Shown here in pieces: positions 2,585 through 29,483 of a stretch of 32,000 bases of DNA. Both the position numbers and the translations under genes were made by a program. Positions within the stretch are counted from its first letter, which is position 1. Each line of letters begins with the position of its first letter. The stretch is taken from NCBI GenBank assembly GCA_016700015.1, contig CP064995.1, positions 240,001 to 272,000 of the forward strand. The letters are read 5' to 3'. The DNA comes from Candidatus Saccharimonadota bacterium (GTDB taxonomy: Bacteria; Patescibacteriota; Saccharimonadia; Saccharimonadales; Saccharimonadaceae). The notes below the pieces were generated by a model. The model made no database searches. It saw only the letters and a program-made list of their open reading frames with translations, and was not told where the DNA came from.

Positions 2585-3403
2585 GTGGCCACTATTCGCA
2601 CACTAGCAACATGGCGTGGTACACTATGGCGTGATATCGCGCTGATTGCTGTACTACCACTCCTATTTGTTAGCACGAGCTACGCACTATACACCCAAAA
2701 ACTCACCGTGAATGGGACGGGAAGTGGGGTGACGTACACCAGCTCGCAAGGACTATTTGTTAGCTATACAAAGACGGTTGTACAAGCAGGTGCAAACTGG
2801 AACTACTCCATCGCTTTTATTGTTAAAAATAATGGCACGAGCGCTATTGGGAGCTGGCAGGTTGGATTTACGATGCCGACAGGCAGCACGTCGCTGGTTT
2901 GTGCGAGTAGTGTCACTTGCTCGGCGGCTGGTATGGCAGTTACAGCTTATAGTACGGCGACAAACAAGACGATTAACGCTGGTGCGCAAAGGACATTTAC
3001 GGTTACGTTTACAGCTACGGTTGCAAATGCTGTCTTGCAGAATCTCTCGGTCGCCGGGTATTATGCCAATACGTACCAGACCATCCCTGGGCTTACGGTG
3101 TCGAATACTAGAGGTACACGCACGAAGTCGGGTCAGTGGTATTATTGGCCGTATAATTTTACTGTTACCAACAATTCAACTATTGCCATCAGTGCTTGGC
3201 GGATTACGGCGACATGGAGCAGCACGACCAATCGCGTACAATCCATGGCAACAACGGTAAACTACACGACAAGCGCAACTCAACTTACTATAACCAGTAA
3301 AACTGCAGTTGCCAAAAATAGCACGTTCAACTTTACGGGCTCGCTGGGCTCTACGAGCACCACATGGGTATTGAGCGGTATCGTGATACAGGGGATGCCG
3401 TAA
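2585..3403 (+). CDS. Secreted protein with two tandem CBM2-like beta-sandwich repeats; shares its N-terminal processing motif with the preceding gene
   Basis: GTG start preceded by aAGGGAcGGG. The N-terminus ...LLFVSTSYA|LYTQKLTVNGTGSG parallels the upstream protein's VAYA|AFAQNLQINGTGTA. There is an internal repeat: IVKNNGTSAIGSWQVGF... versus FTVTNNSTIAISAWRITA... Confidence 0.6.
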   Translation: MATIRTLATWRGTLWRDIALIAVLPLLFVSTSYALYTQKLTVNGTGSGVTYTSSQGLFVSYTKTVVQAGANWNYSIAFIVKNNGTSAIGSWQVGFTMPTGSTSLVCASSVTCSAAGMAVTAYSTATNKTINAGAQRTFTVTFTATVANAVLQNLSVAGYYANTYQTIPGLTVSNTRGTRTKSGQWYYWPYNFTVTNNSTIAISAWRITATWSSTTNRVQSMATTVNYTTSATQLTITSKTAVAKNSTFNFTGSLGSTSTTWVLSGIVIQGMP

Positions 3404-4572
3404 TGTGGTGGCGAACTCTGCGTGTTGTTCGTCCGACTGCGTGGATGATTCTCGTAGCTGTACTGACCGCAACGACACTCACGGTCTGGTTGCGAGTGGC
3501 TCAGATTGTGCCGATTGCATGGATCACCTATACTATCCAGCCTCTTCTGCTCGTCGTAATTGCTAGTTGGTCACTGCTTGCCACGCGTGGTCGTAGTAAC
3601 CGAGCGCGGCATCAATCAGACAAAGCAATAATTGTCGGTAGCGCTGTGGCCATGTGGTTTGTACTTCAATTTGTTAGCGGTATAGTTTTCACCTATACAA
3701 GGAATGCGCTGGCAGCAGATGGCAAGAGCATAGCGCTTAATATTTTGGCCTATAGCATTGTTGCAATTGCAATCGAAATAACTCGCTCGCGACTCATTAT
3801 GCTTGTCGGACGTCGGAATGCCGTGTGGTTTGGAATGATTGTGACAATAGTGCTTGCGCTTCCCTATATGAATTTAGGACAGGCGGTTGAATTGACGTCA
3901 GCGGAACGAGTGGTCAAGATGATATTTATCGACGTCGTACCTTCACTGATGATGAGTACCGTGTTAACATTTTTGGCAGTAGCTGCAGGGTTTGCTTCAC
4001 AACTTACCTTCAGGCTCGGCATTGTTGCTGCGACTATATTGCCACCGATCTTGCCAAAATATGACTGGTATTTGATCGCCATGTCGTCGATGCTTGTCTG
4101 TGTAGCAGTATATTTAGTAATAGATCGCAGCAGCCGCCCTCATGTTAATCACCGGGCACATCGCATCTCGCAGGTAAGGATTGCCTATGAGATTATGGCG
4201 TACAGTACAATTGTTGCACTAATATTATTTATGACAGGCATTTTTGCCTATCGACCGATGGCTATCGTCTCCAATAGTATGAAACCGGTCTTCAGTAGAG
4301 GTGCGATGATAGTTGTGCAGCAAGTGCCTGCTGTGGACATAAGCACAGGCGATATAGTACAATATCAGGGACCAGGAAGAATGGTGACGCACCGTGTTAT
4401 AGCGATAGACTATGATCCTTCGGGCACAGGTGAGCGAATATTTATCACCAAAGGTGATAATAGCCCGAGCCAAGACCCAGTTGTGCGTGCGGAGCAAATC
4501 ATCGGCGTTGTGAAGTTTAGTATTCCTTACATCGGATATCCAACAGTATGGTTAAGAGAATTTTCGGTTTAG
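3403..4572 (+). CDS. Fusion of a polytopic membrane domain (~8 TM, ~285 aa, unknown family) to an ER/archaeal-type signal peptidase I (S26B, SipW-like)
   Basis: The ATG at 3403 overlaps the upstream TAA (TAATG). The C-terminal ~105 aa carry the motifs SNSMKP (Ser codon 4276-4278), GDIVQY, MVTHRV (His codon 4390-4392) and TKGDNSPSQD, matching the SipW/Sec11 Ser-His type motifs SGSMEP / THR / TKGDNN. Confidence 0.75.
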   Translation: MWWRTLRVVRPTAWMILVAVLTATTLTVWLRVAQIVPIAWITYTIQPLLLVVIASWSLLATRGRSNRARHQSDKAIIVGSAVAMWFVLQFVSGIVFTYTRNALAADGKSIALNILAYSIVAIAIEITRSRLIMLVGRRNAVWFGMIVTIVLALPYMNLGQAVELTSAERVVKMIFIDVVPSLMMSTVLTFLAVAAGFASQLTFRLGIVAATILPPILPKYDWYLIAMSSMLVCVAVYLVIDRSSRPHVNHRAHRISQVRIAYEIMAYSTIVALILFMTGIFAYRPMAIVSNSMKPVFSRGAMIVVQQVPAVDISTGDIVQYQGPGRMVTHRVIAIDYDPSGTGERIFITKGDNSPSQDPVVRAEQIIGVVKFSIPYIGYPTVWLREFSV

Positions 4573-4580
4573 GTGGGTAA

Positions 4581-5741
4581 ATGAAAAACACATTTGAGCA
4601 ACAGCAATATAATCGTCGATTGCGTATCATGACCACAAGCGGGATTGTTTTGTTATGCTTTGCTTTGGGTGTTGCTGTCGGGCTTTGGTATCAAAAAAAT
4701 TCCGGAGCAACTGTAAGTGCGCCTTATCACTACTCGGTATCGCAATCTATCAGCAATGCGGTGTTGTACCATCAGAATAGCTTTTATGGAACAGACGACG
4801 TAATAGATAATACTGCCTTTGTAGCTCCACTTACCAATGAGATCCGCACACAATTTCATTATCAATATAGTGGCACAAAAAGTGCGGCGCTCGAGTATCG
4901 TTTTGGTGTTGCAGCGCTCATTCGGGGGACCTATGCGCTATCGGGGAAAGAAGAAGAGTCGGCAAATGTTTGGACGAAGCAGTATGAGCTCATAGCGCCT
5001 ATTACTAAGCAAATCAATGGCACAAATTTTGTGATTGATCAACCGATCACAATCCCCTATGAACAGTATCGTATATTGATCGATCAGTACCGCTCAGCGC
5101 TACAGGTACCAGTGGACGGTGAAGCAATCATTTCGATTGTCGTTAGCGTAAAAGGTGTGATTGACGGCACTCCGTTTGATGACACTAAGACGTCAACTAT
5201 CGCGCTACCTTTAACGAGGCAAATATACCAGCCGGCAACCAAATATGAAAAAAATAGTAGTAAAGATATTACGACAGCGTCGAGCCGAGCGACGCAGGCT
5301 GGTGTAAGCCAACTCCTACTAGTCACTTCAGTCGTGTTTACAGCGCTTGGGGTAGCTCTGATTGTCTTCGCAATGCGACGAAGGATTTTCCGCACGTCCT
5401 ACCAAAAAGAACTCGATAAAATTTATCGCTACCATGAAGGAATAATTGTACGCGCCCGCGAACACCCAGATTTGTCGGGTAAGCGAATTGTTGCGGTCAA
5501 GAGCTTTGATGATATTCTGAACCTCGAAGAAGAAGTAAAGGCGCCAATCGTCAGTAGTGAGGCTGGCGAGCATGCAACAAGGTTCATGATCATAAAGGAT
5601 GACGTGGTATATATGTACCTACTTGGTAGTTTATCAACGACGGATGACGAAGTGCTAAGGGAGATTCAAGATGCTTTCGACGAGAAGACAGAAGTAGCAA
5701 AAAAGCCATTAGCAAGGACTGTTCACCGCAAAGTACAGTAA
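4581..5741 (+). CDS. Bitopic membrane protein: TM, ~200-aa external domain, TM, ~120-aa cytoplasmic tail. Its architecture recalls the DUF5305 proteins found beside SipW-type peptidases.
   Basis: SD AGGTGGG before ATG 4581. Hydrophobic segments are GIVLLCFALGVAVGLWY and LLLVTSVVFTALGVALIVFAM. The family assignment rests on context and architecture only. Confidence 0.45.
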   Translation: MKNTFEQQQYNRRLRIMTTSGIVLLCFALGVAVGLWYQKNSGATVSAPYHYSVSQSISNAVLYHQNSFYGTDDVIDNTAFVAPLTNEIRTQFHYQYSGTKSAALEYRFGVAALIRGTYALSGKEEESANVWTKQYELIAPITKQINGTNFVIDQPITIPYEQYRILIDQYRSALQVPVDGEAIISIVVSVKGVIDGTPFDDTKTSTIALPLTRQIYQPATKYEKNSSKDITTASSRATQAGVSQLLLVTSVVFTALGVALIVFAMRRRIFRTSYQKELDKIYRYHEGIIVRAREHPDLSGKRIVAVKSFDDILNLEEEVKAPIVSSEAGEHATRFMIIKDDVVYMYLLGSLSTTDDEVLREIQDAFDEKTEVAKKPLARTVHRKVQ

Positions 5742-7635: not shown

Positions 7636-7797
7636 ATGTCCTTTGTCATTCAATACAATACGCTAAGTATCTTGGTATCGCCATCATGGGCTTTGCCTCG
7701 TGCGGTTTACATGACCACACAAATACCGTTATTGTTTATATTCGGCGTAGCTATTATTGCGGTGAGTATTACTATCATCGCAGGATGCGGAAGATAG
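7636..7797 (+). CDS. Candidate 53-aa single-TM micro-protein or upstream ORF preceding the ABC exporter
   Basis: My own translation gives MSFVIQYNTLSILVSPSWALPRAVYMTTQIPLLFIFGVAIIAVSITIIAGCGR*. It falls below the ORF-track cutoff. Its stop (7795-7797) overlaps the ABC exporter start at ATG 7785. Confidence 0.3.
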   Translation: MSFVIQYNTLSILVSPSWALPRAVYMTTQIPLLFIFGVAIIAVSITIIAGCGR

Positions 7798-9578
7798 TGC
7801 GCCCACTGCGTACCATAATTAGTTATACTAGCCATTTGCGGGCGTATATGGTTGCTGTTGCGGTTCTGGCGGTATTTACGTCGCTTATGGCGTTTGTGCC
7901 ACCGTTTGTTATTAAGCTTGTGACCGACTGGGTAGTGCACATATCACAAGGAACCACGATGTTTAGCTGGCAACAATTAGGGGCATACGCGCTGGTGCTG
8001 ATTGGTGTTGCGGTGCTAAGCGCAGTGATCGCAGACATCAACGGCTATTTAGGAGATCAGTTATCAATCCGTGCTCGTCATCAATTGTCGACGGCCTACT
8101 ATGGACACTTACTAAAGTTGCCACAGCAGTATTATGACAATGAAATTAGCGGCAAGATTATAAATCGACTTAGTAGGGCGATAACTGACATTACCAACTT
8201 TTTGCAATTCTTCTCGAACAATCTTCTCCAGATGCTACTTACCACTATCCTGACACTATTTGTTTTATTGTGGTATAGCTGGGGGTTGGCATTGTTGTTT
8301 GCGGTGCTCATTCCGGCAAATTTGTATCTGACGGCAAAAACAAGTGGTAAATGGCAAGCACTTGAAAAACAAAAGAATCACCATTTCGATATTGCGAGCG
8401 GTCGATTTGCGGAGGTAATCGCACAAGTACGCTTAGTAAAAAGTTTTGTTACTGAAAAACGGGAGTTCCGCTTTTTTGACAATGAAGTAAAACAAATGAT
8501 TGGTCTCACCGCAGACCAGTCGCGGCACTGGCACATGATGAATTTCCTGCGCGGTCTGGTATTTGGTATCATTCGCGCTCTCAGCCTTATTCTCATATTC
8601 TATCTTGCTGCTAATAAGCAATTAACAATCGGTGATATTGCAATGCTCGTGGTTCTTATTCAGCAGGCGAGCATGCCGCTCAATGGTCTTAGTTTCTTTG
8701 TCGATAGTTATCAGCGAGCAGTTGCAAATAGCAAGGACTATATTGACGCCATGAATGAGCCAATCGAGCCTGACGATAGTGCGCGGAAGAAATTGGCTAT
8801 AACAACAGCCCGCGTCGATTTTCGTGATGTTAGTTTTGGGTATAATACGCAACACCATGTTCTTGATGGGGTGAGTTTTTCAATCCTGCCGGGTCAAAAG
8901 TTGGCATTAGTTGGTGAATCGGGTGGCGGCAAAACGACGATTTCAAATCTACTCATGGGACTTTATGTGCCACAACAGGGAGCGATTCTTATTGATGGAC
9001 AAGCAACTGACACTATTCGACGGCGCGACCTGCGGCAATCGATAGCCACTGTATTTCAAGACGCCTCGCTTTTTAGCGGAACGATACGAGAAAACATTGC
9101 CTATGCGAAACCGGGTGCAAGTGATAAAGAAATATTTGCTGCCGCCAAAGTAGCTAACGCGCTAGGATTCATCAACAAACTCGACAAAGGACTTAACACC
9201 GAGATTGGCGAGCGTGGCATAAAGTTGAGTGGTGGCCAAAAACAGCGACTTGCTATCGCCCGCGCCGTGTTGAAAGATGCACCAATCTTAATTCTCGATG
9301 AGGCAACCAGTAGTCTGGATAGTCGGGCTGAACACGAAGTGCAAGAGGCACTTAATCGACTCATGCAGGGGCGAACAGTGCTTATTATTGCTCATCGACT
9401 TAGCACAATTGCTGGCGTTGATGTAATAGTGACACTAAAAGACGGTCGTGTCGACGAAGTCGGTACGCCCGCAAGGCTTGCTATGACAAATGGTATCTAC
9501 GGTCAGCTTTTGGCGCTTCAGATGGGCACTACTGAAGCCGCAAAGAAGAAATTAGCCGAGTACGAAATCACCAGTTAG
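7785..9578 (+). CDS. ABC exporter, fused permease/ATPase half-transporter (MsbA/CydDC-like architecture)
   Basis: Six N-terminal TM helices, Walker A GESGGGKTT, signature LSGGQKQRLAIARA and Walker B ILILDEATS. The start is moved to MRKIVRPL... because the upstream 33 codons (rich in C/H/Y) look non-coding. Confidence 0.9.
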   Translation: MRKIVRPLRTIISYTSHLRAYMVAVAVLAVFTSLMAFVPPFVIKLVTDWVVHISQGTTMFSWQQLGAYALVLIGVAVLSAVIADINGYLGDQLSIRARHQLSTAYYGHLLKLPQQYYDNEISGKIINRLSRAITDITNFLQFFSNNLLQMLLTTILTLFVLLWYSWGLALLFAVLIPANLYLTAKTSGKWQALEKQKNHHFDIASGRFAEVIAQVRLVKSFVTEKREFRFFDNEVKQMIGLTADQSRHWHMMNFLRGLVFGIIRALSLILIFYLAANKQLTIGDIAMLVVLIQQASMPLNGLSFFVDSYQRAVANSKDYIDAMNEPIEPDDSARKKLAITTARVDFRDVSFGYNTQHHVLDGVSFSILPGQKLALVGESGGGKTTISNLLMGLYVPQQGAILIDGQATDTIRRRDLRQSIATVFQDASLFSGTIRENIAYAKPGASDKEIFAAAKVANALGFINKLDKGLNTEIGERGIKLSGGQKQRLAIARAVLKDAPILILDEATSSLDSRAEHEVQEALNRLMQGRTVLIIAHRLSTIAGVDVIVTLKDGRVDEVGTPARLAMTNGIYGQLLALQMGTTEAAKKKLAEYEITS

Positions 9579-10108
9579 GGATGACGGTTAATCTGTTTTA
9601 GCGCGAAACGGTAAACGGCAACAATCGGTATGAGCGATATAGCAAGGATTGGCATGCCAAGCCATAGTACCAGCTCCATATTAGCTGTATCGGGCACGAA
9701 CTGTCTCTCGATAATTGCCGGAACAATAATAGCCAGCGCCCAGAGCAGTGAGATCACGCCCAGAAGATAGGTGGTAAGTAATAATCCATAAAGGACTCGC
9801 AACTTGCGGGATGTATAGAAAATGACCAAATACAGTGAGCCGCGGAGCAAGATCGAAACAGTGAGCAGGGCAATTGGCCACCACAGCGCGCCGCCAATAT
9901 GAACCAGCAGACCACTAAATGTGATCATGAACTGTGCATATGCAAAAACGAGAAGGGTATGTGTGACCTCAGTCGATGCTTGGACAAATATAAGATTACG
10001 CCCAGCTGGTTTCTGTGTAATGCGCAGTGTTAGCCATATTTCAAGCACACTAAAGAAGAGATAAATAATAACCGGCACGAGAATAAGGCAATAAAGCACG
10101 GCTACCAC
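9575..10108 (-). CDS. 177-aa polytopic membrane protein occupying the CydB position; non-canonical partner of CydA
   Basis: About 5-6 hydrophobic helices. Its start overlaps the cydA stop by 7 nt. It is about half the length of a typical CydB and lacks the usual N-terminal DGFD-like pattern. Confidence 0.5.
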   Translation of the reverse strand: MVAVLYCLILVPVIIYLFFSVLEIWLTLRITQKPAGRNLIFVQASTEVTHTLLVFAYAQFMITFSGLLVHIGGALWWPIALLTVSILLRGSLYLVIFYTSRKLRVLYGLLLTTYLLGVISLLWALAIIVPAIIERQFVPDTANMELVLWLGMPILAISLIPIVAVYRFALKQINRHP

Positions 10109-11364
10109 GACTGTTTCTCCTCGCTACGCCAGCGCCGTGTCGTATAGACCAGAGCATACGTAGTTGTGAGCCCGAGGAGTACAAACAGTACTATAAATAG
10201 GTACTGAGTGCGATGAATATTGGCGCCTAGCGTATACGCAGACTCTGTGCTGAGTTTGCCGACGACTGTCCAGGTTTGACGACCGAATTCTGTGATAAGC
10301 CAACCGAGTTCAAGCATGACGAATCCGATACTACTGAAAGGGACTAGTACAATGCGTAGCCATCGCGGCTGTTTGTGAATTCGCCATCCATACCATACGA
10401 CGAGCAATATAATAGCGCATGAGAGCCCGACAAGGATCATTTTGATGTCGAACATCGTATGCACAACTAAGAAAGGCCATTGGTCACGAGGAATTTCATT
10501 AAGACCTTGCACTTTTGTATCAGTGGACCATCCTACCAGCCAACTAAGGACACCTGGCAATACAATACCACCCGTTGCTTTGCCACTATCATCAATCATG
10601 CCGCCAATTCGCAGAGGAGCATTTGTCTGAGTGTTGTCTAGAATTTCAATTGCAGCTAATTTGTGCGGCTGAGTCGATGCGAGTAATACCGCGGATTGAT
10701 GTCCCAGCACGGCGAGCGCGATAAGTAGTAGCCCGGCAATAACACCAAGCTGCAGCATAACAGACTGCAAGAATTTTTGCGCTACTAGCGTTTGTTTTTT
10801 TAGACTCCGCCACGCGATATAGCCAAGCACCAAAACAGTCGTGGAGAATAGGTAGCTGGCAACAGAGTGCATTACTTCATTGGCGGTTGTAGCGGTAAAT
10901 ATCGCTTCGGGGTTATTCATGTAGGCGTTCACCGACGTAATAAAGAATGCGGAACCAATCGTGCCGATGCTAATTGGTAGTCCGATCCAAAAATGCTTTA
11001 TGCTGCCGATTGTATTTAACGTGCCTAAGTACCAGCTTAGGAACACCGCTTCAATGAGGAACATATAGCCCTCAAGCTGAAAAAGAACACCCACGCTAGG
11101 GCGCACGTGATCAAGAAAAGGTGCCCACAGTGTCGACAACTGAAGCGCAACTGCAGTTCCGGTGAAAACGCCGGCAACTACAAATACGGCAGCCCAAAGC
11201 GCCAGTAGGCGTGTTAGCCGTCGGTACTCATGGCTTTTGTGTCTCCAAGCCTGCCATTCAAAATAGCTCATTAGTACCGGCAAGCCGATAGAAATGGTGA
11301 CAATAATGATATGTACAGCAAGAGTATGTCCGATGAGCTCGCGTCCAGCTGAGAGGGCATCCAT
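10102..11364 (-). CDS. cydA: Cytochrome bd-type quinol oxidase subunit I (short Q-loop)
   Basis: N-terminal His-containing helix (GHTLAVHIII), LEGYMFLIEAVFL, the Q-loop motif QPHKLAAIE, and GWLITEFGRQTWTV. Confidence 0.85.
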   Translation of the reverse strand: MDALSAGRELIGHTLAVHIIIVTISIGLPVLMSYFEWQAWRHKSHEYRRLTRLLALWAAVFVVAGVFTGTAVALQLSTLWAPFLDHVRPSVGVLFQLEGYMFLIEAVFLSWYLGTLNTIGSIKHFWIGLPISIGTIGSAFFITSVNAYMNNPEAIFTATTANEVMHSVASYLFSTTVLVLGYIAWRSLKKQTLVAQKFLQSVMLQLGVIAGLLLIALAVLGHQSAVLLASTQPHKLAAIEILDNTQTNAPLRIGGMIDDSGKATGGIVLPGVLSWLVGWSTDTKVQGLNEIPRDQWPFLVVHTMFDIKMILVGLSCAIILLVVWYGWRIHKQPRWLRIVLVPFSSIGFVMLELGWLITEFGRQTWTVVGKLSTESAYTLGANIHRTQYLFIVLFVLLGLTTTYALVYTTRRWRSEEKQSW

Positions 11365-11452
11365 GGGATATATTCGCTTTCTTCTTTATGCTTATGGCTA
11401 TGTTTGCTATTATACATGCTGTGATAAAAATAATAACTATACGAGAAAGCTA

Positions 11453-12655
11453 ATGGCGGTCCAGGTTACGATTGTCGGTGGGGGTTTTGGTGGAGTAAAA
11501 GCCGCGCTGGAGATCGCAAAGGACTCGAAAAGTCATGTTACACTTATTACTGATAGAGCCGACTTTCAGTACTACCCTACGCTCTATAGCAGTGCCACTG
11601 GCCATAGTCATGCCGAAAGTTGGGCGCCGCTTGGTGAGATTTTTGCCGATCATCCCAATGTTCACGTCTATGTCGATGAGATACAATCGATTGATCCAAC
11701 AACCAAGTCGGTGATTGGCGTGTCGGGAACTCGCTATGACTACAAAACGCTCATCATTGCCATAGGGGTTGTCACTACCTACTTCAATATCCCCGGGCTC
11801 GAAACCTACGCCTATGGGATAAAAAATGCCGATGAAATTCACCGTCTAAAACAGCGGCTATTTATTGATATCGCCGAGAAGGGTGAGCTTGACAAGAACT
11901 ATGTCATCATTGGAGCCGGACCAACCGGTGTCGAGCTAGCGGGTGCGATCGGTGAATATATCCGCCGACTATGTGATAACTACAGGGTGCGAAACGATAA
12001 GGCTAAAGTACGGCTTATCGAAGCTGCACCACGTGTATTGCCGCGGTCACACAAGAAAGTTAGCCAGAATGTGGCTCGCAGGCTCAGGGGACTTGGCGTC
12101 CGTATCGAAACCAACAAGCGTGTCGAGAAAGCTAATGCCCACGAATTGATTGTAAGCGGAAGTCCTATCGAGAGCCACACCGTTATTTGGACATCTGGTG
12201 TCTGCAATCATCCACTATTTGCGCGTCATCCTGACATTTTTACACTAGCCAAAAATGGTCGGGTGCAAGTTGACGACAAATTACAAGCTTACGAAGCCAT
12301 CTATGTTATTGGGGACAATGCCGCCACGCCATATACGGGACTTGCGCAAACTGCTATTCATGATGCGAGATTTGTAGCCCGTCATCTCATGCATCGTACC
12401 GCGAAGCGTAGCTACCGGGCCGTACAGCCAGTACAGGCCATCCCAGTTGGTGCGGGATGGGCGGTAATCGAGTGGCGCTGGATACGAATTTATGGGTGGC
12501 TTGGGGCATGGATACGTCGTGTCGCTGACCTAGTGGGCTATAGCGAGCTTTTGCCGCTCGGCACATCTCTAGGATCGTGGCGTGCCGCGAAAGTATATGA
12601 AAACGATTATTTTACTCCAACTTCACGCACGATTCCTCGTCGTAAAAAACAGTAA
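11453..12655 (+). CDS. ndh: Type II NADH dehydrogenase (NDH-2), FAD-dependent pyridine nucleotide-disulfide oxidoreductase
   Basis: VTIVGGGFGGV and VIIGAGPTGVELAG dinucleotide-binding motifs. The start is set at ATG 11453 (MAVQVTIVGGG); the longer track ORF runs antisense into cydA. Confidence 0.8.
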   Translation: MAVQVTIVGGGFGGVKAALEIAKDSKSHVTLITDRADFQYYPTLYSSATGHSHAESWAPLGEIFADHPNVHVYVDEIQSIDPTTKSVIGVSGTRYDYKTLIIAIGVVTTYFNIPGLETYAYGIKNADEIHRLKQRLFIDIAEKGELDKNYVIIGAGPTGVELAGAIGEYIRRLCDNYRVRNDKAKVRLIEAAPRVLPRSHKKVSQNVARRLRGLGVRIETNKRVEKANAHELIVSGSPIESHTVIWTSGVCNHPLFARHPDIFTLAKNGRVQVDDKLQAYEAIYVIGDNAATPYTGLAQTAIHDARFVARHLMHRTAKRSYRAVQPVQAIPVGAGWAVIEWRWIRIYGWLGAWIRRVADLVGYSELLPLGTSLGSWRAAKVYENDYFTPTSRTIPRRKKQ

Positions 12656-12733: not shown

Positions 12734-13417
12734 ATGGCGACAACGAAAACCCAGCGCTGGGGTATACTGGCAATCCTGATAGTGACTGTTATTGGTACGG
12801 TTGGTTCATTTGCGGTTATGATACTTGCCTCGGAAAATCAGGCGAACGATTCGGCAAAACAGCAACAAGCCTATGATGAGTATCAAAAACGCTCGCAGGA
12901 GTATCAACAGAAAGTGACAGCTCAGGCCGACGAACTTTCCGTACAGTACCATGAGACGTTTGCGCCATACGCTGATAATGTGATTGAGTTTGATAGTGCG
13001 AGTGTTACTAGCCTCACTACAAATGATATCGTCATCGGTGAAGGAGAAGAAATTAGCGGCTCAACACCGTTTGCTGCTTATTATGTTGGCTGGAATCCAA
13101 AAGGAAAAGTATTTGACAGTAGTATTGATACTGATAAGAGTAAACTGAAAGCTCCGCTGTTTGCTAATGTAAGTCTCGACAAGGGGCTCGACAATGCAAC
13201 GCTAATCACCGGTTGGAAAGAGGGTATGAAGGGGATGCGTGTTGGTGGTATTCGTGAGATCACCATTCCATCCGACAAAGCCTATGGAGAGCAGGGGCAG
13301 GGTGACGATATTCCGCCAAACACACCACTTAAATTTATTGTCATGGCAATTTCTGCGCCCGCTGTGATAGAACAGCCGAGTATTCCGGCAGAGCTCTACC
13401 AAGGAATGACTAGATAG
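12734..13417 (+). CDS. Membrane-anchored FKBP-type peptidyl-prolyl cis-trans isomerase
   Basis: N-terminal TM (WGILAILIVTVIGTVGSFAVMIL), a Q-rich linker, and the FKBP core GWNPKGKVFDSS...ITGWKEGMKGMRVGGIREITIPSDKAYG...PLKFIV. Confidence 0.85.
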   Translation: MATTKTQRWGILAILIVTVIGTVGSFAVMILASENQANDSAKQQQAYDEYQKRSQEYQQKVTAQADELSVQYHETFAPYADNVIEFDSASVTSLTTNDIVIGEGEEISGSTPFAAYYVGWNPKGKVFDSSIDTDKSKLKAPLFANVSLDKGLDNATLITGWKEGMKGMRVGGIREITIPSDKAYGEQGQGDDIPPNTPLKFIVMAISAPAVIEQPSIPAELYQGMTR

Positions 13418-13425
13418 GGGGATAT

Positions 13426-14367
13426 ATGGATGAACACGCAATAAGAGATGTTATCATGGTGGGCGCCGGCCCCAGTGCACTAGCGGCGGCTATTTATACA
13501 ACGCGTGAGAATATCGATACCGTTCTGTATGAAAAGGGCGTTGTCGGTGGATTAGCGGCTATCACTGATAAAGTTGACAACTATCCTGGCTTCGCCGATG
13601 GCGTTGAGGGTATGGTGCTCGCCGAACAGTTGCAAAAACAAGCAGAGCGGTTTGGTGCCCATATTGAATATGGTGATGTAACCGCGGTGCGCGACGAGGG
13701 TGATTATCGAGTGGTGACTGTGGATGGAAATGAGGTAAAGGCTCGTGCTGTACTTGTAGCAACAGGAAGCGATTACAATAAACTTGGTATTCCAGGTGAG
13801 GCGGAATACTATGGTCGCGGTGTCCACTACTGTGCCACTTGTGATGGCGCATTTTACCGCGACAAGCGGATTGTCGTAGTGGGTGGTGGCAATAGTGGTG
13901 TACAAGAAGCCATATTTCTGACACGGTTCGCAAATCACATCGACCTTTTGGTACGTAGTACGCTGAAAGCAAGTGATATTCTCCAGCGCGATTTGCAACA
14001 GTACATAGACGAAGGGCAGGTTACGGTTCATCTTCAGACGGTTCCGACTGAAATTGTGGCCGGTGATGATGGCAAGGTGCACAAGGTAAAAACTCTACAG
14101 AACAACGAACCAGTCGATATCGCCACAGACGGCGTATTCGTCTTTATTGGGCTTAAACCAAATACGCAATTTTTGGCCGGTAGTGGTGTCGAGCTCGACG
14201 AACATAATCTCGTAAAAACAGATGTTCACCTGGCGACGAATGTGCCCGGTGTCTATGCAAGTGGCGATGTCCGTAGTGGCGCAACCATGCAAGTGGCCAG
14301 TGCTGTGGGTGAAGGCGCAACCGCTGCACTTTCGATACGCGAATTTATCGATAGCTCGAAACAGTAA
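13426..14367 (+). CDS. trxB: Thioredoxin-disulfide reductase
   Basis: GAGPSALAAAIY, the redox-active CATCDG, and GGGNSGVQEA. Confidence 0.9.
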   Translation: MDEHAIRDVIMVGAGPSALAAAIYTTRENIDTVLYEKGVVGGLAAITDKVDNYPGFADGVEGMVLAEQLQKQAERFGAHIEYGDVTAVRDEGDYRVVTVDGNEVKARAVLVATGSDYNKLGIPGEAEYYGRGVHYCATCDGAFYRDKRIVVVGGGNSGVQEAIFLTRFANHIDLLVRSTLKASDILQRDLQQYIDEGQVTVHLQTVPTEIVAGDDGKVHKVKTLQNNEPVDIATDGVFVFIGLKPNTQFLAGSGVELDEHNLVKTDVHLATNVPGVYASGDVRSGATMQVASAVGEGATAALSIREFIDSSKQ

Positions 14368-22388: not shown

Positions 22389-23249
22389 ATGAATGGGCAG
22401 CTGACAACAATACAGATCGAACAAAAAGCCAATAGTATCAGAAAAGACATTGTGAAAATGCTCGAACACGCCGGTAGTGGGCACAGTGCAGGACCTTTAG
22501 GGTTGGCTGATCTTGTGGCGACGCTTTATTTTCATGTCATGAACTGCGATCCCAAGAACCCGGAGGATCCAGAGCGCGACATATTTTTCCTGTCCAATGG
22601 CCATTGTGTGCCAGTGCAGTATGCCACAATGGCAGAGGCGGGGTATTTTGACAAAGATGAACTGATGACGCTGCGCAAACTTGGTTCCAGGCTCCAGGGC
22701 CACCCAGAGCGCACAAAGCTACCCGGCCTAGAAAATACTAGCGGTCCACTAGGGTGTGGTATAGGGCAGGGTGCAGGGTATGCCTATGCATTGCAGTATC
22801 TCGATCATCAACCCCATCGCTGGGTATATGTGGTGACGGGTGACGGTGAGCTTGACGAGGGGAACAACTGGGAATCGATTATGTTTGCCGGTAAATACAA
22901 GTTGAGCCAGCTAATTGTATTTGTCGATCGCAATAACATACAGATTGATGGGCCAACCGAAAGCGTTATGCCGCTCGAAAATCTTCGAGCAAAATGGGAA
23001 GCATTTGGATGGCATGTTCAAGAGATCGATGGCCACAATATAGAGAGCATTATTGACGCGGTCGGTATGGCAAAAGCCATCGAAAATAGACCGAGCTGTA
23101 TCATTACCCACACGATACCGGGCAAAAATGTTGATTTCATGGAGTACAATTACAAGTGGCACGGCATCCCGCCCAATAAGGATCAAGCCAAAGAAGCACT
23201 TCATGAACTACGTACGCTCGGCGGAAGAATCACGAGTGAACACCAGTAA
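22389..23249 (+). CDS. tkt: Transketolase, N-terminal (thiamine-diphosphate-binding) subunit
   Basis: GSGHSAGPLGLADLVATLYF...LSNGH...GDGELDEGNNWE... Confidence 0.9.
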   Translation: MNGQLTTIQIEQKANSIRKDIVKMLEHAGSGHSAGPLGLADLVATLYFHVMNCDPKNPEDPERDIFFLSNGHCVPVQYATMAEAGYFDKDELMTLRKLGSRLQGHPERTKLPGLENTSGPLGCGIGQGAGYAYALQYLDHQPHRWVYVVTGDGELDEGNNWESIMFAGKYKLSQLIVFVDRNNIQIDGPTESVMPLENLRAKWEAFGWHVQEIDGHNIESIIDAVGMAKAIENRPSCIITHTIPGKNVDFMEYNYKWHGIPPNKDQAKEALHELRTLGGRITSEHQ

Positions 23250-23269: not shown

Positions 23270-24187
23270 ATGAACAACGAAGACCCAGCAAATCAAGCAT
23301 CAAATCAAGTCACACCTACGACCACTTCGGTTCAGGACGTGATGCAAGGGGCACAATACGTCGCGGCAGCCCCCTCTAGTATGAATGCGCCCACTGCCAA
23401 TCCCGGTAAAACGCTGGGCATAGTTAGTATTGTAATGGGGGTATTGGGCATCTGGCTCGGTGGTCTACCTGTTGCAATTGTGTCGCTCATGAAGTCTCGC
23501 CGGGCAAAACAATCTGCAACATGGGGTATAGTCGGTGTAGTTGTGAATACACTTTCACTCATCCTCTCGATAATAGTTGCTGTCATGTTCTTTGCGGTCT
23601 TTGCAAATATGGATGATAATAAGGCAAAATCGGGTCAATCATCGACACAGACGAACGCAAAATCAACAGATACACCAAACGCTGAATTAGTGGATATCCC
23701 GCTGAGCCAGCAGTACAAAGTGACAGGCCAGTTAGGTAAGGCATACTGGGCGGCAGATATTCCCAAGGGTGATTGGGAAGCAGATATTCTTGACCAGGGC
23801 GGTAAAAATCATTTCATTCGCAAAGATAAAACAGCCGAGTTCACAACTTTCCAAGGCTATGACCCTTCGCTCAGTGGCGACAGCGATCTTAAGGCGACAC
23901 GGGCAGGTATTGCTTCGCTTACACAGGGAGGAAAGTCGCTTGAGCTCGGCGATGAGAGTACCACTGCATTTATTGAAATGGGTCGCGGCAAGACAGTCGA
24001 GTTTGTAGTACAAGATTACACGTATAGCACGAATGATGGTCAAGTGATGAAAGCTCGTATGACGGGACGTGCATTTGACGGTGGTCAATACCTATATGCG
24101 TGGTATGTCTCGACGCCTGCAATGTTTAGCGAAAGTGACTGGCAGATGTTTGTGAATGGTTTATCTGTGAATGACGGAGCGATATAA
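23270..24187 (+). CDS. Membrane protein with a DUF4190-like two-TM N-terminus and a ~170-aa external domain, inserted between the two transketolase subunit genes
   Basis: GKTLGIVSIVMGVLGIWLGGLPVAIVSLMKSRRAKQSATWGIVGVVVNTLSLILSIIV. SD AAGGAG lies upstream. Confidence 0.55.
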   Translation: MNNEDPANQASNQVTPTTTSVQDVMQGAQYVAAAPSSMNAPTANPGKTLGIVSIVMGVLGIWLGGLPVAIVSLMKSRRAKQSATWGIVGVVVNTLSLILSIIVAVMFFAVFANMDDNKAKSGQSSTQTNAKSTDTPNAELVDIPLSQQYKVTGQLGKAYWAADIPKGDWEADILDQGGKNHFIRKDKTAEFTTFQGYDPSLSGDSDLKATRAGIASLTQGGKSLELGDESTTAFIEMGRGKTVEFVVQDYTYSTNDGQVMKARMTGRAFDGGQYLYAWYVSTPAMFSESDWQMFVNGLSVNDGAI

Positions 24188-24211: not shown

Positions 24212-25210
24212 GTGAGTAGCTACAAACTAAACAGTAATATATATTTGGACACGCCGGATGCCGAGCCGACTCGTGCAGGGTTTGGTCGTGGCCTCAAAGC
24301 GGCAGGCGAGGCCAACCCCAACGTGGTGGGGCTGTGTGCCGACCTTGTAGAAAGTGTGCAGATGCATCTATTCGCTGAAGCATTCCCAGATCGCTATATC
24401 GAAGTTGGGATTGCCGAGCAAAATTTACCGATCATCGCGAGCGGCTTGGCGCGAGCGGGTAAAATTCCATTTGCGGCGAGCTACGCAGCGTTTAGCCCAG
24501 GCCGTAACTGGGAGCAGATTAAAACCACAACAGCGCTCAACGAGCAACCAGTTAAAATGGTTGGTGCTCATGCGGGCCTAACGGTTGGCCCTGATGGCGC
24601 TACTCACCAAATGCTGGAAGATATTGCCCTTATGCGGGTCATGCCGGGCATGGTAGTGGTGTCTCCGGGTGACAGCATCGAGGCCGAAAAAGCCACGCTG
24701 GCGATTGCCGAGCACCCGAGTGCTTGCTACCTGCGCATTGCCCGCGAGAAAACACCGATCTTTAGTACGACAGAGTCACCATTTGAAATCGGCAAAGCCT
24801 ATGTGCTGCGTGAAGGCAACGATGTTACGCTGCTGTCGACCGGCATCGAAACGCCGTATGCACTGCGGGCAGCCGATAAACTTGTTGCCAGTGGTGTGTC
24901 AGTTGAAGTAGTGCATGTACCGACTATCAAGCCGCTTGACGAGGCAACAATTCTTGCTTCAGTCAAAAAAACCGGCCGGGCAGTATCGTGCGAGGATGCG
25001 CAGGCTGCCGGTGGGTTTGGCGGCGCTATCGCTGAGCTTTTATCTGAAAAATTACCCACTCCACTATTGAGGCTGGGTATGCAAGATCGCTACGGCGAGT
25101 CAGGCGCGCCACTTGAAGTGCTGGCGCACTTTGGCCTAACTGATGATGGGATTGCTGCCAGCGTGAAGCAGTTTGTTGCCGTCACGCCAAAGTACCACCA
25201 GGGATTTTGA
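24212..25210 (+). CDS. tkt: Transketolase, C-terminal (pyrimidine-binding + C-terminal domain) subunit
   Basis: GTG start. TRAGFGRGL...DRYIEVGIAEQNL...HAGLTVGPDGATHQMLEDIALMRVMPGM. Confidence 0.9.
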   Translation: MSSYKLNSNIYLDTPDAEPTRAGFGRGLKAAGEANPNVVGLCADLVESVQMHLFAEAFPDRYIEVGIAEQNLPIIASGLARAGKIPFAASYAAFSPGRNWEQIKTTTALNEQPVKMVGAHAGLTVGPDGATHQMLEDIALMRVMPGMVVVSPGDSIEAEKATLAIAEHPSACYLRIAREKTPIFSTTESPFEIGKAYVLREGNDVTLLSTGIETPYALRAADKLVASGVSVEVVHVPTIKPLDEATILASVKKTGRAVSCEDAQAAGGFGGAIAELLSEKLPTPLLRLGMQDRYGESGAPLEVLAHFGLTDDGIAASVKQFVAVTPKYHQGF

Positions 25211-26091: not shown

Positions 26092-27003
26092 ATGGGGCTA
26101 ACTATTACTGAGATTCGTGACCGTACACTTCGTGCCAGGCATTTGATGCAGCGGAGTCGGCAGCAGGGCTTTGCGGTGGGTGCATTTAACATCGACAACC
26201 AAGAAACGCTGATTGCCGTCTGTCGAGCAGCGCAAAAGCTTAATGCACCAGTGATGGTCGAAGTGAGCGATGGCGAAGTAAAAGCACTTGGTCTCGAAAA
26301 CATTCGCGATATGGTCGACAATTACCGTGACGAATACGGGGTGGAGATATATATTAACCTTGACCATAGCCCAACGGTTGAGGCGTGCAAGCAAGCGATC
26401 GATGTTGGGTTTGAATTTATTCATATTGACATCAGCCAGGCAAATCACGATGCTACTGAAGAAGAAATAATCGCTAAAACCAAAGAGGTGGTGGAGTACG
26501 CCCGTTTTACAGGTGCGCTCGTTGAGAGTGAGCCACACTATTTTGGCGGCAGTAGCAACGTACATCACGAAGACATCAACTACGATGAGATTAAAAAAAC
26601 GTTTAGTACACCTGAAAGTGCCAAAGCATTTTGCGACGCGACGGGTGTCGATACGTTTGCCGCAGCGATCGGCAACTTGCACGGTAAGTATGACGTACCG
26701 AAAGAACTTGATATTGAGCTACTGCAGCGTATCCGCGAAAGCATCGGTTGCCAGATTAGCCTGCACGGTGGCAGCGGCACGCCACTCCACTACTTCGAGG
26801 AAGCGGCTAAAGTGGGCGTGAGTAAAATCAACATCAATAGCGATATGCGCTATGCATTCCGTACGGTGCTCGAGCAGTCGCTTCAGCAGCACCCCGATGA
26901 ATTTGCAGTGGTGAAACTAATGGACGACGTAAAAGACGCTGTGCAAGCGGTGGTCGAAGAAAAGATCACAGCATTTGGCAGTGCCGGCAAGGCAGTTCGC
27001 TAG
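26092..27003 (+). CDS. fba: Class II fructose-bisphosphate aldolase family protein
   Basis: GAFNIDNQETLIAVCRAAQKLNAPVMVEVS, LDHS, HIDIS, LHGGSGTP. Confidence 0.9.
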   Translation: MGLTITEIRDRTLRARHLMQRSRQQGFAVGAFNIDNQETLIAVCRAAQKLNAPVMVEVSDGEVKALGLENIRDMVDNYRDEYGVEIYINLDHSPTVEACKQAIDVGFEFIHIDISQANHDATEEEIIAKTKEVVEYARFTGALVESEPHYFGGSSNVHHEDINYDEIKKTFSTPESAKAFCDATGVDTFAAAIGNLHGKYDVPKELDIELLQRIRESIGCQISLHGGSGTPLHYFEEAAKVGVSKININSDMRYAFRTVLEQSLQQHPDEFAVVKLMDDVKDAVQAVVEEKITAFGSAGKAVR

Positions 27004-27004
27004 C

Positions 27005-27994
27005 ATGGTGAAGATTTTGAGTATTGGCAAGGGCACGCAAGACGTGTTCCTCAAAAGTGACGAATTTGACCCGCACAAAGAAGGCAGGCATATGTATACT
27101 CACTTGCCACTCGGTCTTAAAATGGAGGTCGAAGACGTGCATTTTTGTACAGGTGGCAATGCGACCAATGTTGCAGTGACTTTTGCGCGGCAGGGGCTGG
27201 AGAGTGGGTACCTGTGGGGGCTGGGTGACGACCCGGCGAGCGCGTCGATACTACGCGAGCTGGACGAAGAGGGAGTCAATACCTCGCATGTGGTACAAAA
27301 GCCTGAATATCAGTCGGGCTATTCGGTGATTATGATTGCGACAAATGGCGAACGAACTATACTCAACCATCGTGGCAAAGCATTCGGTCGCACCGGACGA
27401 CACAACTTTGACCTAGCTGTAATCGGCTCGTATGACTGGATATATCCAACAAGTCTTGGTGACGGTGGTTTGCCACTGCTTCACGAAATTGTCTCGACAG
27501 CCGCTCGGCACAAGGTAAAGGTGATGCTCAACCCAGCTGGGCCGGAATTGGCTGATCCTGCAAGATTAAAAACAATCCTTGAAGATGTCGAGGTACTTTG
27601 CTGCAACAAAGAAGAAATGAGTTTGCTCGTTGCAGGCGCTACTTGTGAAGAACTGGCACTTCACGCGTTAAGCTACGTGCCAGTAGCCATCGTGAGTGAT
27701 GGCCCTAATGGCGTGGTTGCGACCGATGGCAAAACCATCGTACGTGCTGGTATGTATGAAGACGTGCCGGTAGTGGATCGCACCGGTGCGGGTGACGCGT
27801 TTGCCAGTGGATTTTTGAGTCAGTGGAGCCAAGGTAAAAGTCTCAAGCAGTCGATTATATTTGCCAGCGCCAATAGCACGAGTGTTGTCACAAAGATTGG
27901 CGCGAAGGCTGGTATACTACCCAAAAGTGTACGGCTACATGAGATGCCAATTCATGAACGTCCCGTTAATTTACGCGAGGCGCCCCATGTCTAA
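27005..27994 (+). CDS. PfkB-family carbohydrate/nucleoside kinase
   Basis: The ATG lies 1 nt after the fba TAG. Motifs present are TGGNATNVAVTFARQG (di-Gly motif) and DRTGAGDAFASGFL (anion hole and catalytic Asp). Confidence 0.85.
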   Translation: MVKILSIGKGTQDVFLKSDEFDPHKEGRHMYTHLPLGLKMEVEDVHFCTGGNATNVAVTFARQGLESGYLWGLGDDPASASILRELDEEGVNTSHVVQKPEYQSGYSVIMIATNGERTILNHRGKAFGRTGRHNFDLAVIGSYDWIYPTSLGDGGLPLLHEIVSTAARHKVKVMLNPAGPELADPARLKTILEDVEVLCCNKEEMSLLVAGATCEELALHALSYVPVAIVSDGPNGVVATDGKTIVRAGMYEDVPVVDRTGAGDAFASGFLSQWSQGKSLKQSIIFASANSTSVVTKIGAKAGILPKSVRLHEMPIHERPVNLREAPHV

Positions 27995-29483
27995 ATATCT
28001 CCAACAGCTACTTGGTGCCGATGAGCCGATGTTCAGTACGACGCTCAGGCAGCTAGAAAAAATGACTGGGCATAAGGCGACAGACGTGGCTTATATCGCT
28101 GATATGACAGCACGAGCCCACCAGGTGATGCGCCGTATGGGACTCGATGTTGCCGACACCACCGAACACGAACTCTACCGTGCGCTCGCTGCCCATGCCC
28201 ATAACCAGACCCTGTTCATAGCAACCGATGACGTGGGGATCATCATCCACGGTCAGGCTGTATCGTTTAATTACGAAGACGTGCAGGAAAACATTCATCG
28301 CCCATTTGCTGAACGCATGACTGAGCACATGAAGTGCCAAATCAAATACGGCCTGACTTCGCGCTATGTGGCCGCCGATGGTGATGATGAAGTAGCAATT
28401 GAAGAACTTATTGCTCAAGCAGGGCTTAGTGTGTGTGACATGAGCGACTATCACGAACATAAGCAGACAAATGTAAAGCAAAAGACTCGGCCGCCGCGGC
28501 TGCTATTTATTGGTGACATTTTTACCGACGCGTTTATCAAACTCAGCCCGAAAGTCGCTCGCGTCGATAAAGACGACCAGGGTCGATCATGGATTAGTAT
28601 TCCATTCGGTGGCCGTCCGCCCTATGAGGAAGTGGAGATCGTCCAATCGGTTGGCCCAGCTCCCAATGCAGCCGTTTCTTGTGCGCGACTTGGACTTGAT
28701 GTGAGTTTGATGAGTTGGCTTGGTGACGACAAGCCTGGCGGTGATTCGCTCGCATACCTTTCCAAACAACAGGTTAACACGCAGCTCGTATCACAGAAAA
28801 AGCAGGCAAAATCAAACTACTACTATGTACTGCGGCTTGGCGCAGAGCGTACGATTTTGACGAAAGATGAAGACTATAGCTATGTATGGCAAGAGCCGCA
28901 TATGGTGCCAGATTGGATCTACCTGGCCAGTATTAGTGGTGAATCGTGGGGGTTGCATGAAGCCCTCGACAACTACCTAGGGCAGCACCCAGACATAAAA
29001 TTTGTCATTCAGCCGGGTACGTTTCATTTTGAATGGGGCGTCAAGAAGATGGCGCAGCTTTACCGACATGCCTATATGGTGATCCTTAACCGCGAGGAGG
29101 CCGTTATGCTCACAGGCAAAAGTCATGAGTCGATACCAGAACTAGCAGCTGCGTTGCATGAACTTGGTCCGCTCTATGTGGTGATTACTGATGGCCCTTC
29201 TGGTTCGTACGCGTCTTTTGATGGAAAGCTCCTAAAAATGCCTAACTATCCAGACCCGGCGCCGCCGTATGATCGCACTGGTGCTGGCGATGCTTTTGCG
29301 AGTACGGTGGTCGCAGCGATGGCACTAGGAGAAGGTTTTGAAACGGCCCTTACGTGGGCGCCTATCAACAGTATGAGTGTTGTCCAAAAACTCGGGGCTC
29401 AAGCGGGATTACTTTCCAAAGCGACAATCGAGGAGTATATCAAAAAAGCACCGAAATGGTATAAGTTAGAGGAGATTAAATAA
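27987..29483 (+). CDS. PfkB-family kinase with a ~170-aa N-terminal domain of unknown function
   Basis: The start ATGTCTAA overlaps the upstream stop by 8 nt. The C-terminal ~320 aa carry DRTGAGDAFASTVV, but the di-Gly motif is replaced by VGPAPNAAVSCARLG. I do not recognise the N-terminal MSKYLQQLLG...AQAGLSV region. Confidence 0.75.
   Translation: MSKYLQQLLGADEPMFSTTLRQLEKMTGHKATDVAYIADMTARAHQVMRRMGLDVADTTEHELYRALAAHAHNQTLFIATDDVGIIIHGQAVSFNYEDVQENIHRPFAERMTEHMKCQIKYGLTSRYVAADGDDEVAIEELIAQAGLSVCDMSDYHEHKQTNVKQKTRPPRLLFIGDIFTDAFIKLSPKVARVDKDDQGRSWISIPFGGRPPYEEVEIVQSVGPAPNAAVSCARLGLDVSLMSWLGDDKPGGDSLAYLSKQQVNTQLVSQKKQAKSNYYYVLRLGAERTILTKDEDYSYVWQEPHMVPDWIYLASISGESWGLHEALDNYLGQHPDIKFVIQPGTFHFEWGVKKMAQLYRHAYMVILNREEAVMLTGKSHESIPELAAALHELGPLYVVITDGPSGSYASFDGKLLKMPNYPDPAPPYDRTGAGDAFASTVVAAMALGEGFETALTWAPINSMSVVQKLGAQAGLLSKATIEEYIKKAPKWYKLEEIK

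Follow-up and report, generated by a model that had tools for sequence, protein, structure and literature searches.

The window analysed here is the whole stretch of 32,000 nucleotides from a Candidatus Saccharimonadota bacterium, 32 kb out of a 1.01-Mb genome, and all negative results given for the window cover these 32 kb. On its minus strand, two overlapping genes encode subunit I of a cytochrome bd-type oxidase (CydA) and, in the position of cydB, a protein of only 177 amino acids (aa), and a type II NADH:quinone oxidoreductase (NDH-2) is encoded divergently across a short intergenic region (Table 1). The subject of this analysis is the short protein, which on the comparisons presented below is a half-length form of CydB, and the oxidase that it may form with CydA. 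All named close relatives of CydA and of the 177-aa protein are Candidatus Saccharimonas or Saccharibacteria, in agreement with a first reading of the sequence (the original prediction), in which the genome was taken to be like those of the candidate phyla radiation (CPR).

The 177-aa length, about half that of a normal CydB, and the 7-nt overlap with cydA noted in that reading are borne out by the coordinates. The short open reading frame (ORF) starts at a GTG inside the sequence GTGGTAG, which also holds the stop codon of cydA and thus accounts for the overlap; the minus-strand junction reads ...CAG TCG TGG TAG CCG TG..., with a GAGGAG ribosome-binding site upstream of the GTG. At the other end, the stop codon of the short ORF overlaps the convergent stop codon of an ATP-binding cassette (ABC) transporter gene, which leaves no space beyond it for the rest of cydB.

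The family of the short protein comprises about 40 clusters (174-184 aa, 52-65% identity), and when 1.84 billion representative proteins were searched with the family profile, only 31 clusters were found, the full-length members of which were all 163-179 aa. With a narrow profile of Saccharimonas sequences only (A1), the short protein had no match in the PDB, and homology to CydB was detectable only once distant family members had been added to the profile. Two relatives of the window CydA carry subunits of different size, P0094 (36% identical) being followed by a 301-aa protein with PF02322 and P0092 (35% identical) by a 172-aa protein which is 27% identical to the short protein of the window.

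When the diverse alignment of the short family (A2) was compared by hhalign with the 300-aa CydB family carrying PF02322 (A3), a probability of 98.9% was obtained (E 2e-17, 168 columns), with positions 7-180 of the short family corresponding to positions 7-174 of 310 in CydB. Residues 1-135 of the short family (helices 1-4) alone matched CydB with E 6e-18, and helix 2 and helix 3 alone matched their collinear CydB counterparts (E 1e-6 and 3e-7, respectively), while control alignments with CydA (score 24.7) and with the reversed CydB alignment (18.1) stayed at noise level compared with a score of 117 for CydB. In addition, PF02322 (Cyt_bd_oxida_II) was matched by 21 of 32 short-family members scanned singly (best E 2e-11), a weak precomputed match to the same family was present for P0170, and the 177-aa protein of the window matched a hidden Markov model of the 300-aa CydB with E 5e-5. 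Searched against 177,635 PDB sequences, the A2 profile found solely 5doq_B (1.3e-6) and 9r2g_D (2.8e-4), both of which are CydB chains.

The N-terminal pattern of CydB, thought in the original prediction to be lacking, is present in a diverged form in the window protein, in which LEI, STEVTHTLLVF and RGSLYLVIFY stand for VECG, WEVTNVFLVF and RACLVLxxFY. Across the short family, the acidic element of helix 1 is ET (VECG in the 300-aa CydB), the motif of helix 2 is ATWEVTHTLLVF (FTPLWEVTNVFLVF in the 300-aa CydB), and that of helix 3 is RGxLYLxLFY (RACLVLxxFY). With the conserved acidic residue retained and with the hhalign, PF02322 and PDB results all pointing to CydB, the view of the subunit as non-canonical, if taken to mean something other than CydB, did not hold.

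An AlphaFold2 model made on the diverse alignment had a predicted local distance difference test score (pLDDT) of 91.3 and a predicted template modelling score of 0.85, and contained five long helices. In Foldseek, bd-oxidase chains were the main full-length matches, with a root-mean-square deviation of 4.5-6 Å over 120-140 columns, and small helical-bundle domains matched at a similar deviation; the modelled structure is consistent with CydB, although not decisive. The profile comparisons identify the 177-aa protein as a genuine homologue of CydB, corresponding to the N-terminal half of CydB and having about half its length and five predicted helices.

Among full-length proteins, those most closely related to the short subunit are unusually small CydBs of 298-318 aa (L001:6301-7206, P0172-P0223), compared with 342-379 aa in the solved enzymes, and one of them is named as Saccharimonadales. 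These proteins may represent an intermediate stage of reduction.

CydB consists of two four-helix bundles and one further helix, and all solved bd oxidases have the nine-helix arrangement, described as an 'invariant fold' (PMC8951039). The short subunit, with 177 aa and five helices, departs from this nine-helix form of about 300-380 aa, to which the CydBs of Escherichia coli (379 aa), 5doq_B (342 aa) and 9r2g_D (374 aa) belong. Five residues, E23, E47, H50, R89 and P161, were invariant in 32 of 32 short-family sequences. In the alignments, the counterparts of E47 and H50 are E57 and H60 of 9r2g_D, E47 also corresponds to the glutamate of WEVT in 5doq_B, and E23 is matched to D25 of 9r2g_D by way of the A3 consensus. 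In the AppB subunit of Mycobacterium smegmatis, D25B-H60B-E57B have been described as leading protons from the cytoplasm to haem d, and the position of Asp58 in E. coli CydB is conserved through the entire bd family (PMC12994193). A proton channel lies at the CydA/CydB interface, flanked by transmembrane helices (TM) 2 and 3 of both subunits, and in the Geobacillus enzyme, of the qOR3 type, O2 reaches haem d straight from the membrane and not via CydB (PMC8951039). By alignment, the CydB residues to which those structures assign a role in the proton pathway are thus carried by the kept half, and for the lost second bundle neither a haem ligand nor, in the qOR3 type, a catalytic residue has been assigned.

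The fifth helix may correspond to either of two CydB helices, namely TM5, which would correspond to a C-terminal truncation, and TM9, which would correspond to an internal deletion of the second bundle. Taken alone, the last helix of the short protein had its highest scores with the final helix of the 300-aa CydB (18.5) and with residues 343-355 of E. coli CydB, but these scores are noise, since the CydA and reversed-CydB controls also score 18-25, and C-terminal fragments of the short protein gave no match to PF02322.

The distribution of the short subunit was followed with the A1 alignment in a scan across GTDB species, each represented by a single genome, with neighbourhoods of about 6 kb taken on either side. 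The scan gave 23 loci, labelled Saccharibacteria, Saccharimonadaceae, Saccharimonadales, Patescibacteria or unclassified bacterium. In 29 of 29 places (the window and 28 loci), a short cydB that matches the profile of the N-terminal half of CydB directly follows cydA, its ORF being 170-201 aa as called and about 170-185 aa from the conserved start, and the start and stop codons of the two genes mostly overlap or abut. With a profile of the C-terminal half of CydB, no ORF was found at E<=1 in the window or within about 6 kb of the 28 loci, and the same profile scored 1.6e-46 on the full-length CydB of L001. The original prediction would also have been refuted by a full-length cydB elsewhere in an operon-like context, and none was present in the window or within 6 kb of the 28 loci. 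Close pairs of short cydB genes had ratios of nonsynonymous to synonymous substitution (dN/dS) of 0.03, 0.02 and 0.055 at dS 0.8-3, and short cydB is under strong purifying selection. At one distant locus with cydA and short cydB (L006:1-464), genes for a heliorhodopsin, a P-type ATPase and a MopE-like protein that binds Cu lie beside those of the oxidase.

CydA matched PF01654 almost end to end (profile positions 5-415 of 418) with 249.5 bits against a cut-off of 26.2, and its closest solved relative is 5doq_A of Geobacillus thermodenitrificans (E 9e-50). The view that cydA is catalytically complete was supported by this match, by the presence of the QPHKLAAIE and GRQTWTV motifs, and by the ligands. 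In an alignment of 48 CydAs, residues H19, E99, E107, H186, E445 and R448 of the E. coli enzyme map to H18, E98, E105, H166, E359 and R362 of the window CydA, and the quinol-site residues K252 and E257 map to K235 and E240 inside QPHKLAAIE; each of these eight residues was kept in 27 of 27 clade members. The original prediction had allowed for haem or quinol ligands being missing on proper alignment, and all were found, with the reservation that at the position of Met393, the second axial ligand of haem b558, the Met is shifted by one residue.

At this position the clade reads F-D-I-K-M, a signature of every CydA that has a short CydB as its partner, in contrast to F-D/R-x-M in the rest of the CydAs. 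Lys308 fills the aligned Met393 column, and M309 follows one residue on, in register with the downstream helix (codons 10438-10443, minus strand). This is read as the insertion of one lysine beside the putative b558 ligand, and the lysine itself may act as ligand. By this residue mapping, the protein appears to be a complete quinol-oxidising CydA, with all three predicted haem sites and the quinol site.

The two proton-channel glutamates are spaced by six residues (EGYMFLIE), which is the state of qOR2, qOR3 and qOR4a and not of qOR1, and qOR3 is listed for Patescibacteria in Supplementary Table 3 of the superfamily survey (bioRxiv 10.1101/2021.01.16.426971). Of the Geobacillus residues Tyr115 and Tyr117, the first is kept in the window CydA (Y112) and the second is a glycine (G114), as seen in the alignment with 5doq_A. 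In the neighbour-joining tree, CydAs paired with short subunits grouped together with 66% bootstrap, these CydAs and the L001 CydA, which is paired with a 300-aa CydB, formed a clade with 97% bootstrap, and the next relatives were CydAs of Staphylococcus and Bacillaceae. On these characters and on a tree made by neighbour-joining only, the CydA clade appears to belong to a qOR3-like lineage.

The ORF of NDH-2 was listed from 11294, but a start at 11453 (MAVQVTIVGGGFGG) gives 400 aa and was preferred because homologues have 388-411 aa; with this start, the divergent arrangement across 88 bp given in the original prediction is correct. The protein, a flavoprotein with two dinucleotide folds, matched PF07992 and PF00070, its translation contains GGGFGG and GAGPTG, and its best PDB matches were Bacillus subtilis YjlD (3e-32), Caldalkalibacillus thermarum 4nwz (4e-26) and Staphylococcus aureus 5na1 (2e-25), with yeast Ndi1 also found. 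The sequence AQTAIH, a candidate quinone-binding motif, lies where NDH-2 enzymes have AQxAxQ. NDH-2 was divergent from cydA in 8 of 8 loci of the subclade with 417-423-aa CydA, the window included. The order NDH-2, FKBP, TrxB and phospholipase D-like (PLD) protein is common to the window and L002, the CydA of which is 50% identical.

Upstream regions were compared between the window and L002, L005 and L007-L010, all of the NDH-2-linked subclade. A -10-like box, GTATAATA, lies upstream of cydA (11409-11414, minus strand) and was present in 7 of 7 subclade loci, and a leader element, CATAAGCATAAAG (11384-11396, minus strand), was found in the form CATAAGC(A/G)(T/A)AAAGGA in 6 of the 7. The GTATAATA box was missed by a generic promoter scan, and no Rex-like or other palindromic operator was seen in the 88-bp region.

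Around the operon, the thioredoxin reductase and the flavin mononucleotide (FMN) reductase noted in the original prediction were confirmed by family matches (Table 1), TrxB being regarded as redox and oxygen-tolerance context. The gene downstream of short cydB varies by locus, encoding an ABC transporter, PheT, an acyltransferase or the ATPase of a type II secretion system. In the window, the ABC half-transporter was considered as a CydDC component but not accepted as an established part of the system, with CydD at 271 bits against a cut-off of 435, CydC below its cut-off, MsbA matching better and the gene not being syntenic in L002. As listed, its ORF has a 44-residue N-terminal extension of odd composition (7686-7817), and the true start is likely to be the Met at 7818, which gives 586 aa.

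Table 1. Features of the cydA and short cydB locus and its surroundings, with positions in the window.
Feature	Position	Strand	Basis
NADPH-dependent FMN reductase family protein, 187 aa	5785..6348	plus	PF03358 E 7e-31
MsbA-like ABC half-transporter	7818..9578	plus	best NCBIfam match MsbA, 396 bits, under its cut-off
Truncated cydB, 177 aa, five predicted TM helices	9575..10108	minus	ORF scan, hhalign, AlphaFold2 model
Short-CydB invariant codons	E23 10040-10042, E47 9968-9970, H50 9959-9961, R89 9842-9844	minus	alignment
cydA, cytochrome bd subunit I, 420 aa, short Q-loop, qOR3-like	10102..11364	minus	PF01654 E 6e-74
Divergent intergenic region, 88 bp	11365..11452		sequence and comparison with related loci
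NDH-2 (type II NADH:quinone oxidoreductase), 400 aa	11453..12655	plus	PF07992 E 2e-41
Membrane-anchored FKBP-type peptidyl-prolyl isomerase	12734..13417	plus	PF00254 E 9e-17; order as in L002; syntenic context
TrxB, thioredoxin reductase	13426..14367	plus	TIGR01292 E 2e-91, 306 bits, under 343-bit curated cut-off; CATC motif; syntenic in L002

The G+C content across the window was 44-53%. Also encoded there are an HtpX-like protease, a glycerophosphodiesterase, a PLD-like protein, a pyrophosphatase and RelA/SpoT, together with glyceraldehyde-3-phosphate dehydrogenase and pentose-phosphate and glycolytic enzymes. No men, ubi or hem genes were found in the window, and scans for tRNAs and Rfam families gave no match. 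Transketolase is encoded by two genes, for the N-terminal part (22389-23249) and the C-terminal part (24212-25210), between which lies a 305-aa ORF without Pfam match (23270-24187). Consecutive genes at 2585-5741 code for three proteins, one with a CBM_2 (cellulose-binding) domain, one that weakly matches S26 signal peptidases and one with DUF5305, and this trio may be a module for secreted or surface proteins. The called ORFs of two PfkB-family kinases at 26975-29483 share about 130 nt; no Pfam family matches the first 260 residues of the second (540 aa), an N-terminal extension, so that its start may be mis-called.

Taken together, the two overlapping genes quite probably encode a minimised cytochrome bd-type quinol:O2 oxidoreductase of qOR3-like kind with a half-CydB, and short cydB, a conserved gene coupled in translation to cydA, is real and probably functional. 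We infer that CydA and the short CydB form a complex which reduces O2, and that haem and quinone come from outside the cell. In such an enzyme, subunit II would be cut to about 175 residues and five helices, with the first four-helix bundle of CydB retained; E23, E47, H50 and R89 would be the CydB-side residues of a proton pathway from the cytoplasm to the O2-reducing haem, and the single CydB bundle would dock on the haem-bearing bundle of CydA. NDH-2 would pass electrons from NADH to the membrane quinone pool and CydA would re-oxidise the quinol with O2, the predicted outcome being NAD+ regenerated for a fermentative cell and a lowered O2 level, and, if the enzyme is electrogenic like other bd oxidases, a contribution to the membrane potential. 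A more detailed version is put forward tentatively, in which the short CydB would stand 1:1 with CydA or a pair of short subunits would mimic the two bundles, haem and menaquinol would be taken from an actinobacterial host, and the lysine would retune haem b558, at which quinol electrons enter, to suit this use.

Several observations weigh against this proposal. In E. coli, activity is lost when the quinone groove of CydB is mutated, and together with the nine-helix fold of all solved bd oxidases this means that half a CydB may not suffice. The b558 Met is one residue out of register (FDIKM compared with FDxM), and in one clade member (P0087), which reads K-I, it is replaced by Ile. The 177-aa protein taken alone matched neither Pfam nor NCBIfam, and Foldseek searches of the PDB with two AlphaFold2 models (pLDDT 82.8 and 91.3) gave nothing at E<=0.001. 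No NDH-2 was found within 6 kb at the loci with 443-457-aa CydA, so that the linkage is limited to one subclade. A C-terminal CydB fragment, a cydX-like peptide, or haem and quinone genes are possible in the part of the 1.01-Mb genome beyond the 32 kb, and the activity of the enzyme is a prediction from its genes.

Under another explanation, CydA and the half-CydB would have a different job, as a peroxidase, a nitric oxide detoxifier, a haem store or sensor, or an oxidase with another electron donor, and the altered b558 site would shift the haem potential. The clade-specific K-M at the Met393 position, K-I in one member, would fit such a role, the bd superfamily has members with other donors (bioRxiv 10.1101/2021.01.16.426971), and bd enzymes have been implicated in stress responses (PMC8951039). 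However, K235, E240, the proton-channel glutamates, H18 and E359 are conserved, which is the combination of a quinol-oxidising enzyme in the survey, and the divergent neighbour in all eight loci of the subclade is a quinol-making NDH-2, and we regard a different job as not very likely.

It is also improbable that CydB is split, with its second four-helix bundle encoded elsewhere in the genome and the assembled enzyme being ordinary. The build of CydB from two bundles and a helix makes a split plausible (PMC8951039), and 32 kb of 1,011,181 bp were read; against this, the C-terminal-half profile had no match in the window or within 6 kb of the 28 loci, a search with the 300-aa CydB gave no free-standing C-terminal fragments of about 130 aa, and the parts of split membrane subunits are usually adjacent, whereas the downstream neighbour varies here.

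Since CPR genomes are strongly reduced and generally without electron-transport chains (PMC7507113), and haem and quinone synthesis have been reported missing in Saccharibacteria (PMC6031116), the operon might be a decaying relic of genome reduction with a pseudogene-like short cydB and an inactive enzyme. This is very unlikely in view of a length held at 170-185 aa across lineages with CydAs just 35% identical, the five residues invariant in 32 sequences, dN/dS of 0.02-0.06 at dS 0.8-3, the preserved overlap with cydA, and the catalytic residues of CydA conserved in 27 of 27. Replacement of CydB by an unrelated accessory subunit, as by CydA' in archaeal CydAA', would agree with the lack of Pfam, NCBIfam and A1-profile PDB matches, but it is refuted with near certainty by three independent profile-level tests (hhalign, PF02322 and the PDB profile search) which point to the CydB family and not to CydA, by motifs visible by eye, and by the reversed-profile control, which argues against a compositional artefact.

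For the minimised bd oxidase, no description of a truncated or half-size CydB was found in the openly searchable literature, subscription papers being outside the search; the characterised class of truncated CydB to which the original prediction had thought a full-length match conceivable was likewise not found there. In the superfamily survey, subunit II of qOR1-3 consists of CydB homologues and no truncated form is mentioned (bioRxiv 10.1101/2021.01.16.426971), and CPR genome papers (PMC12592800, PMC10031880) go no further than giving the cytochrome bd of Saccharimonadia as present or with 'several steps'. Where the short proteins carry a name at all, it is that of a hypothetical protein. 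By this comparison, the conserved half-length CydB appears to be new, and the enzyme otherwise to be of known bd kind.

CydB binds no haem, and the reason why it is needed is still debated. If a half-size CydB, kept over a long span of evolution, supports activity, this would point to the first four-helix bundle with its proton-pathway residues as the indispensable part, and the enzyme would be a small and tractable subject for mutagenesis and cryo-electron microscopy, with a bearing on bd oxidases as antibiotic targets. Surveys in which the bd oxidase of Saccharimonadia is scored as partial or as subunit I only probably overlook an unannotated, conserved subunit II, so that O2 handling in CPR episymbionts may be more complete than annotated. 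The question of whether ultra-small symbionts respire on haem and quinone supplied by the host is sharpened by these results. The idea of host quinol is itself not new, as scavenging of haem and quinone was proposed for a cyo-bearing Saccharibacterium (PMC6031116) and use of host quinol for Nanoarchaeota and Parcubacteria (PMC6142677, PMC4508563).

Among known systems, the bd oxidase of G. thermodenitrificans (qOR3; 5DOQ, with CydA, CydB and CydS) provides both the closest solved CydA and the CydB closest to the short family. Common to 5DOQ and the predicted window enzyme are the short Q-loop, the six-residue glutamate spacing and WEVT in TM2 of subunit II, whereas subunit II has 342 aa and nine helices in 5DOQ and 177 aa and five helices here. 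In addition, the window CydA has the extra Lys before the b558 Met and one of the two qOR2/3 tyrosines (Y112; G114), and no cydS-like or cydX-like ORF adjoins the window operon, unlike 5DOQ, which has CydS. In bd-II of M. smegmatis (qOR-2; 9R2G; PMC12994193), D25, H60 and E57 of the 374-aa AppB correspond to E23, H50 and E47 of the short family, while D184 and R187 at the cytoplasmic entrance of AppB fall in the part missing from the short CydB.

Archaeal CydAA' (qOR4a/4b, Caldivirga maquilingensis; bioRxiv 10.1101/2021.01.16.426971) is the one documented quinol-oxidising bd enzyme without a canonical CydB, indicating that subunit II can change drastically while O2 reduction is kept. There, in Archaea, a CydA paralogue of roughly full size has taken the place of CydB; here, in CPR bacteria, CydB appears to be kept but halved. 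Nanoarchaeota and Parcubacteria (PMC6142677, PMC4508563) are ultra-small episymbionts with cydA and without quinone synthesis, and in Nanoarchaeota subunit II was also missed by automatic annotation, its recognition depending on the distant similarity of a membrane protein encoded downstream of cydA. For these groups subunit II was not reported to be truncated, and terrestrial Nanoarchaeota have no quinone reductase, in contrast to the window with its adjacent NDH-2.

The same two-enzyme logic is found in the chain of lactic acid bacteria and Streptococcus agalactiae, in which NDH-2 feeds menaquinone and CydAB, with NDH-2 as the entry point and the bd oxidase as the sole exit, and these cells are fermentative and Gram-positive-like and respire only when given haem, to which some species must add external quinone (PMC6030563, PMC2696406). 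They have a full-length CydB and CydDC, and their cofactor auxotrophy is demonstrated, whereas that of the window organism is presumed. By analogy, the NDH-2/CydAB chain of these bacteria would be the nearest physiological model for the predicted chain of the window.

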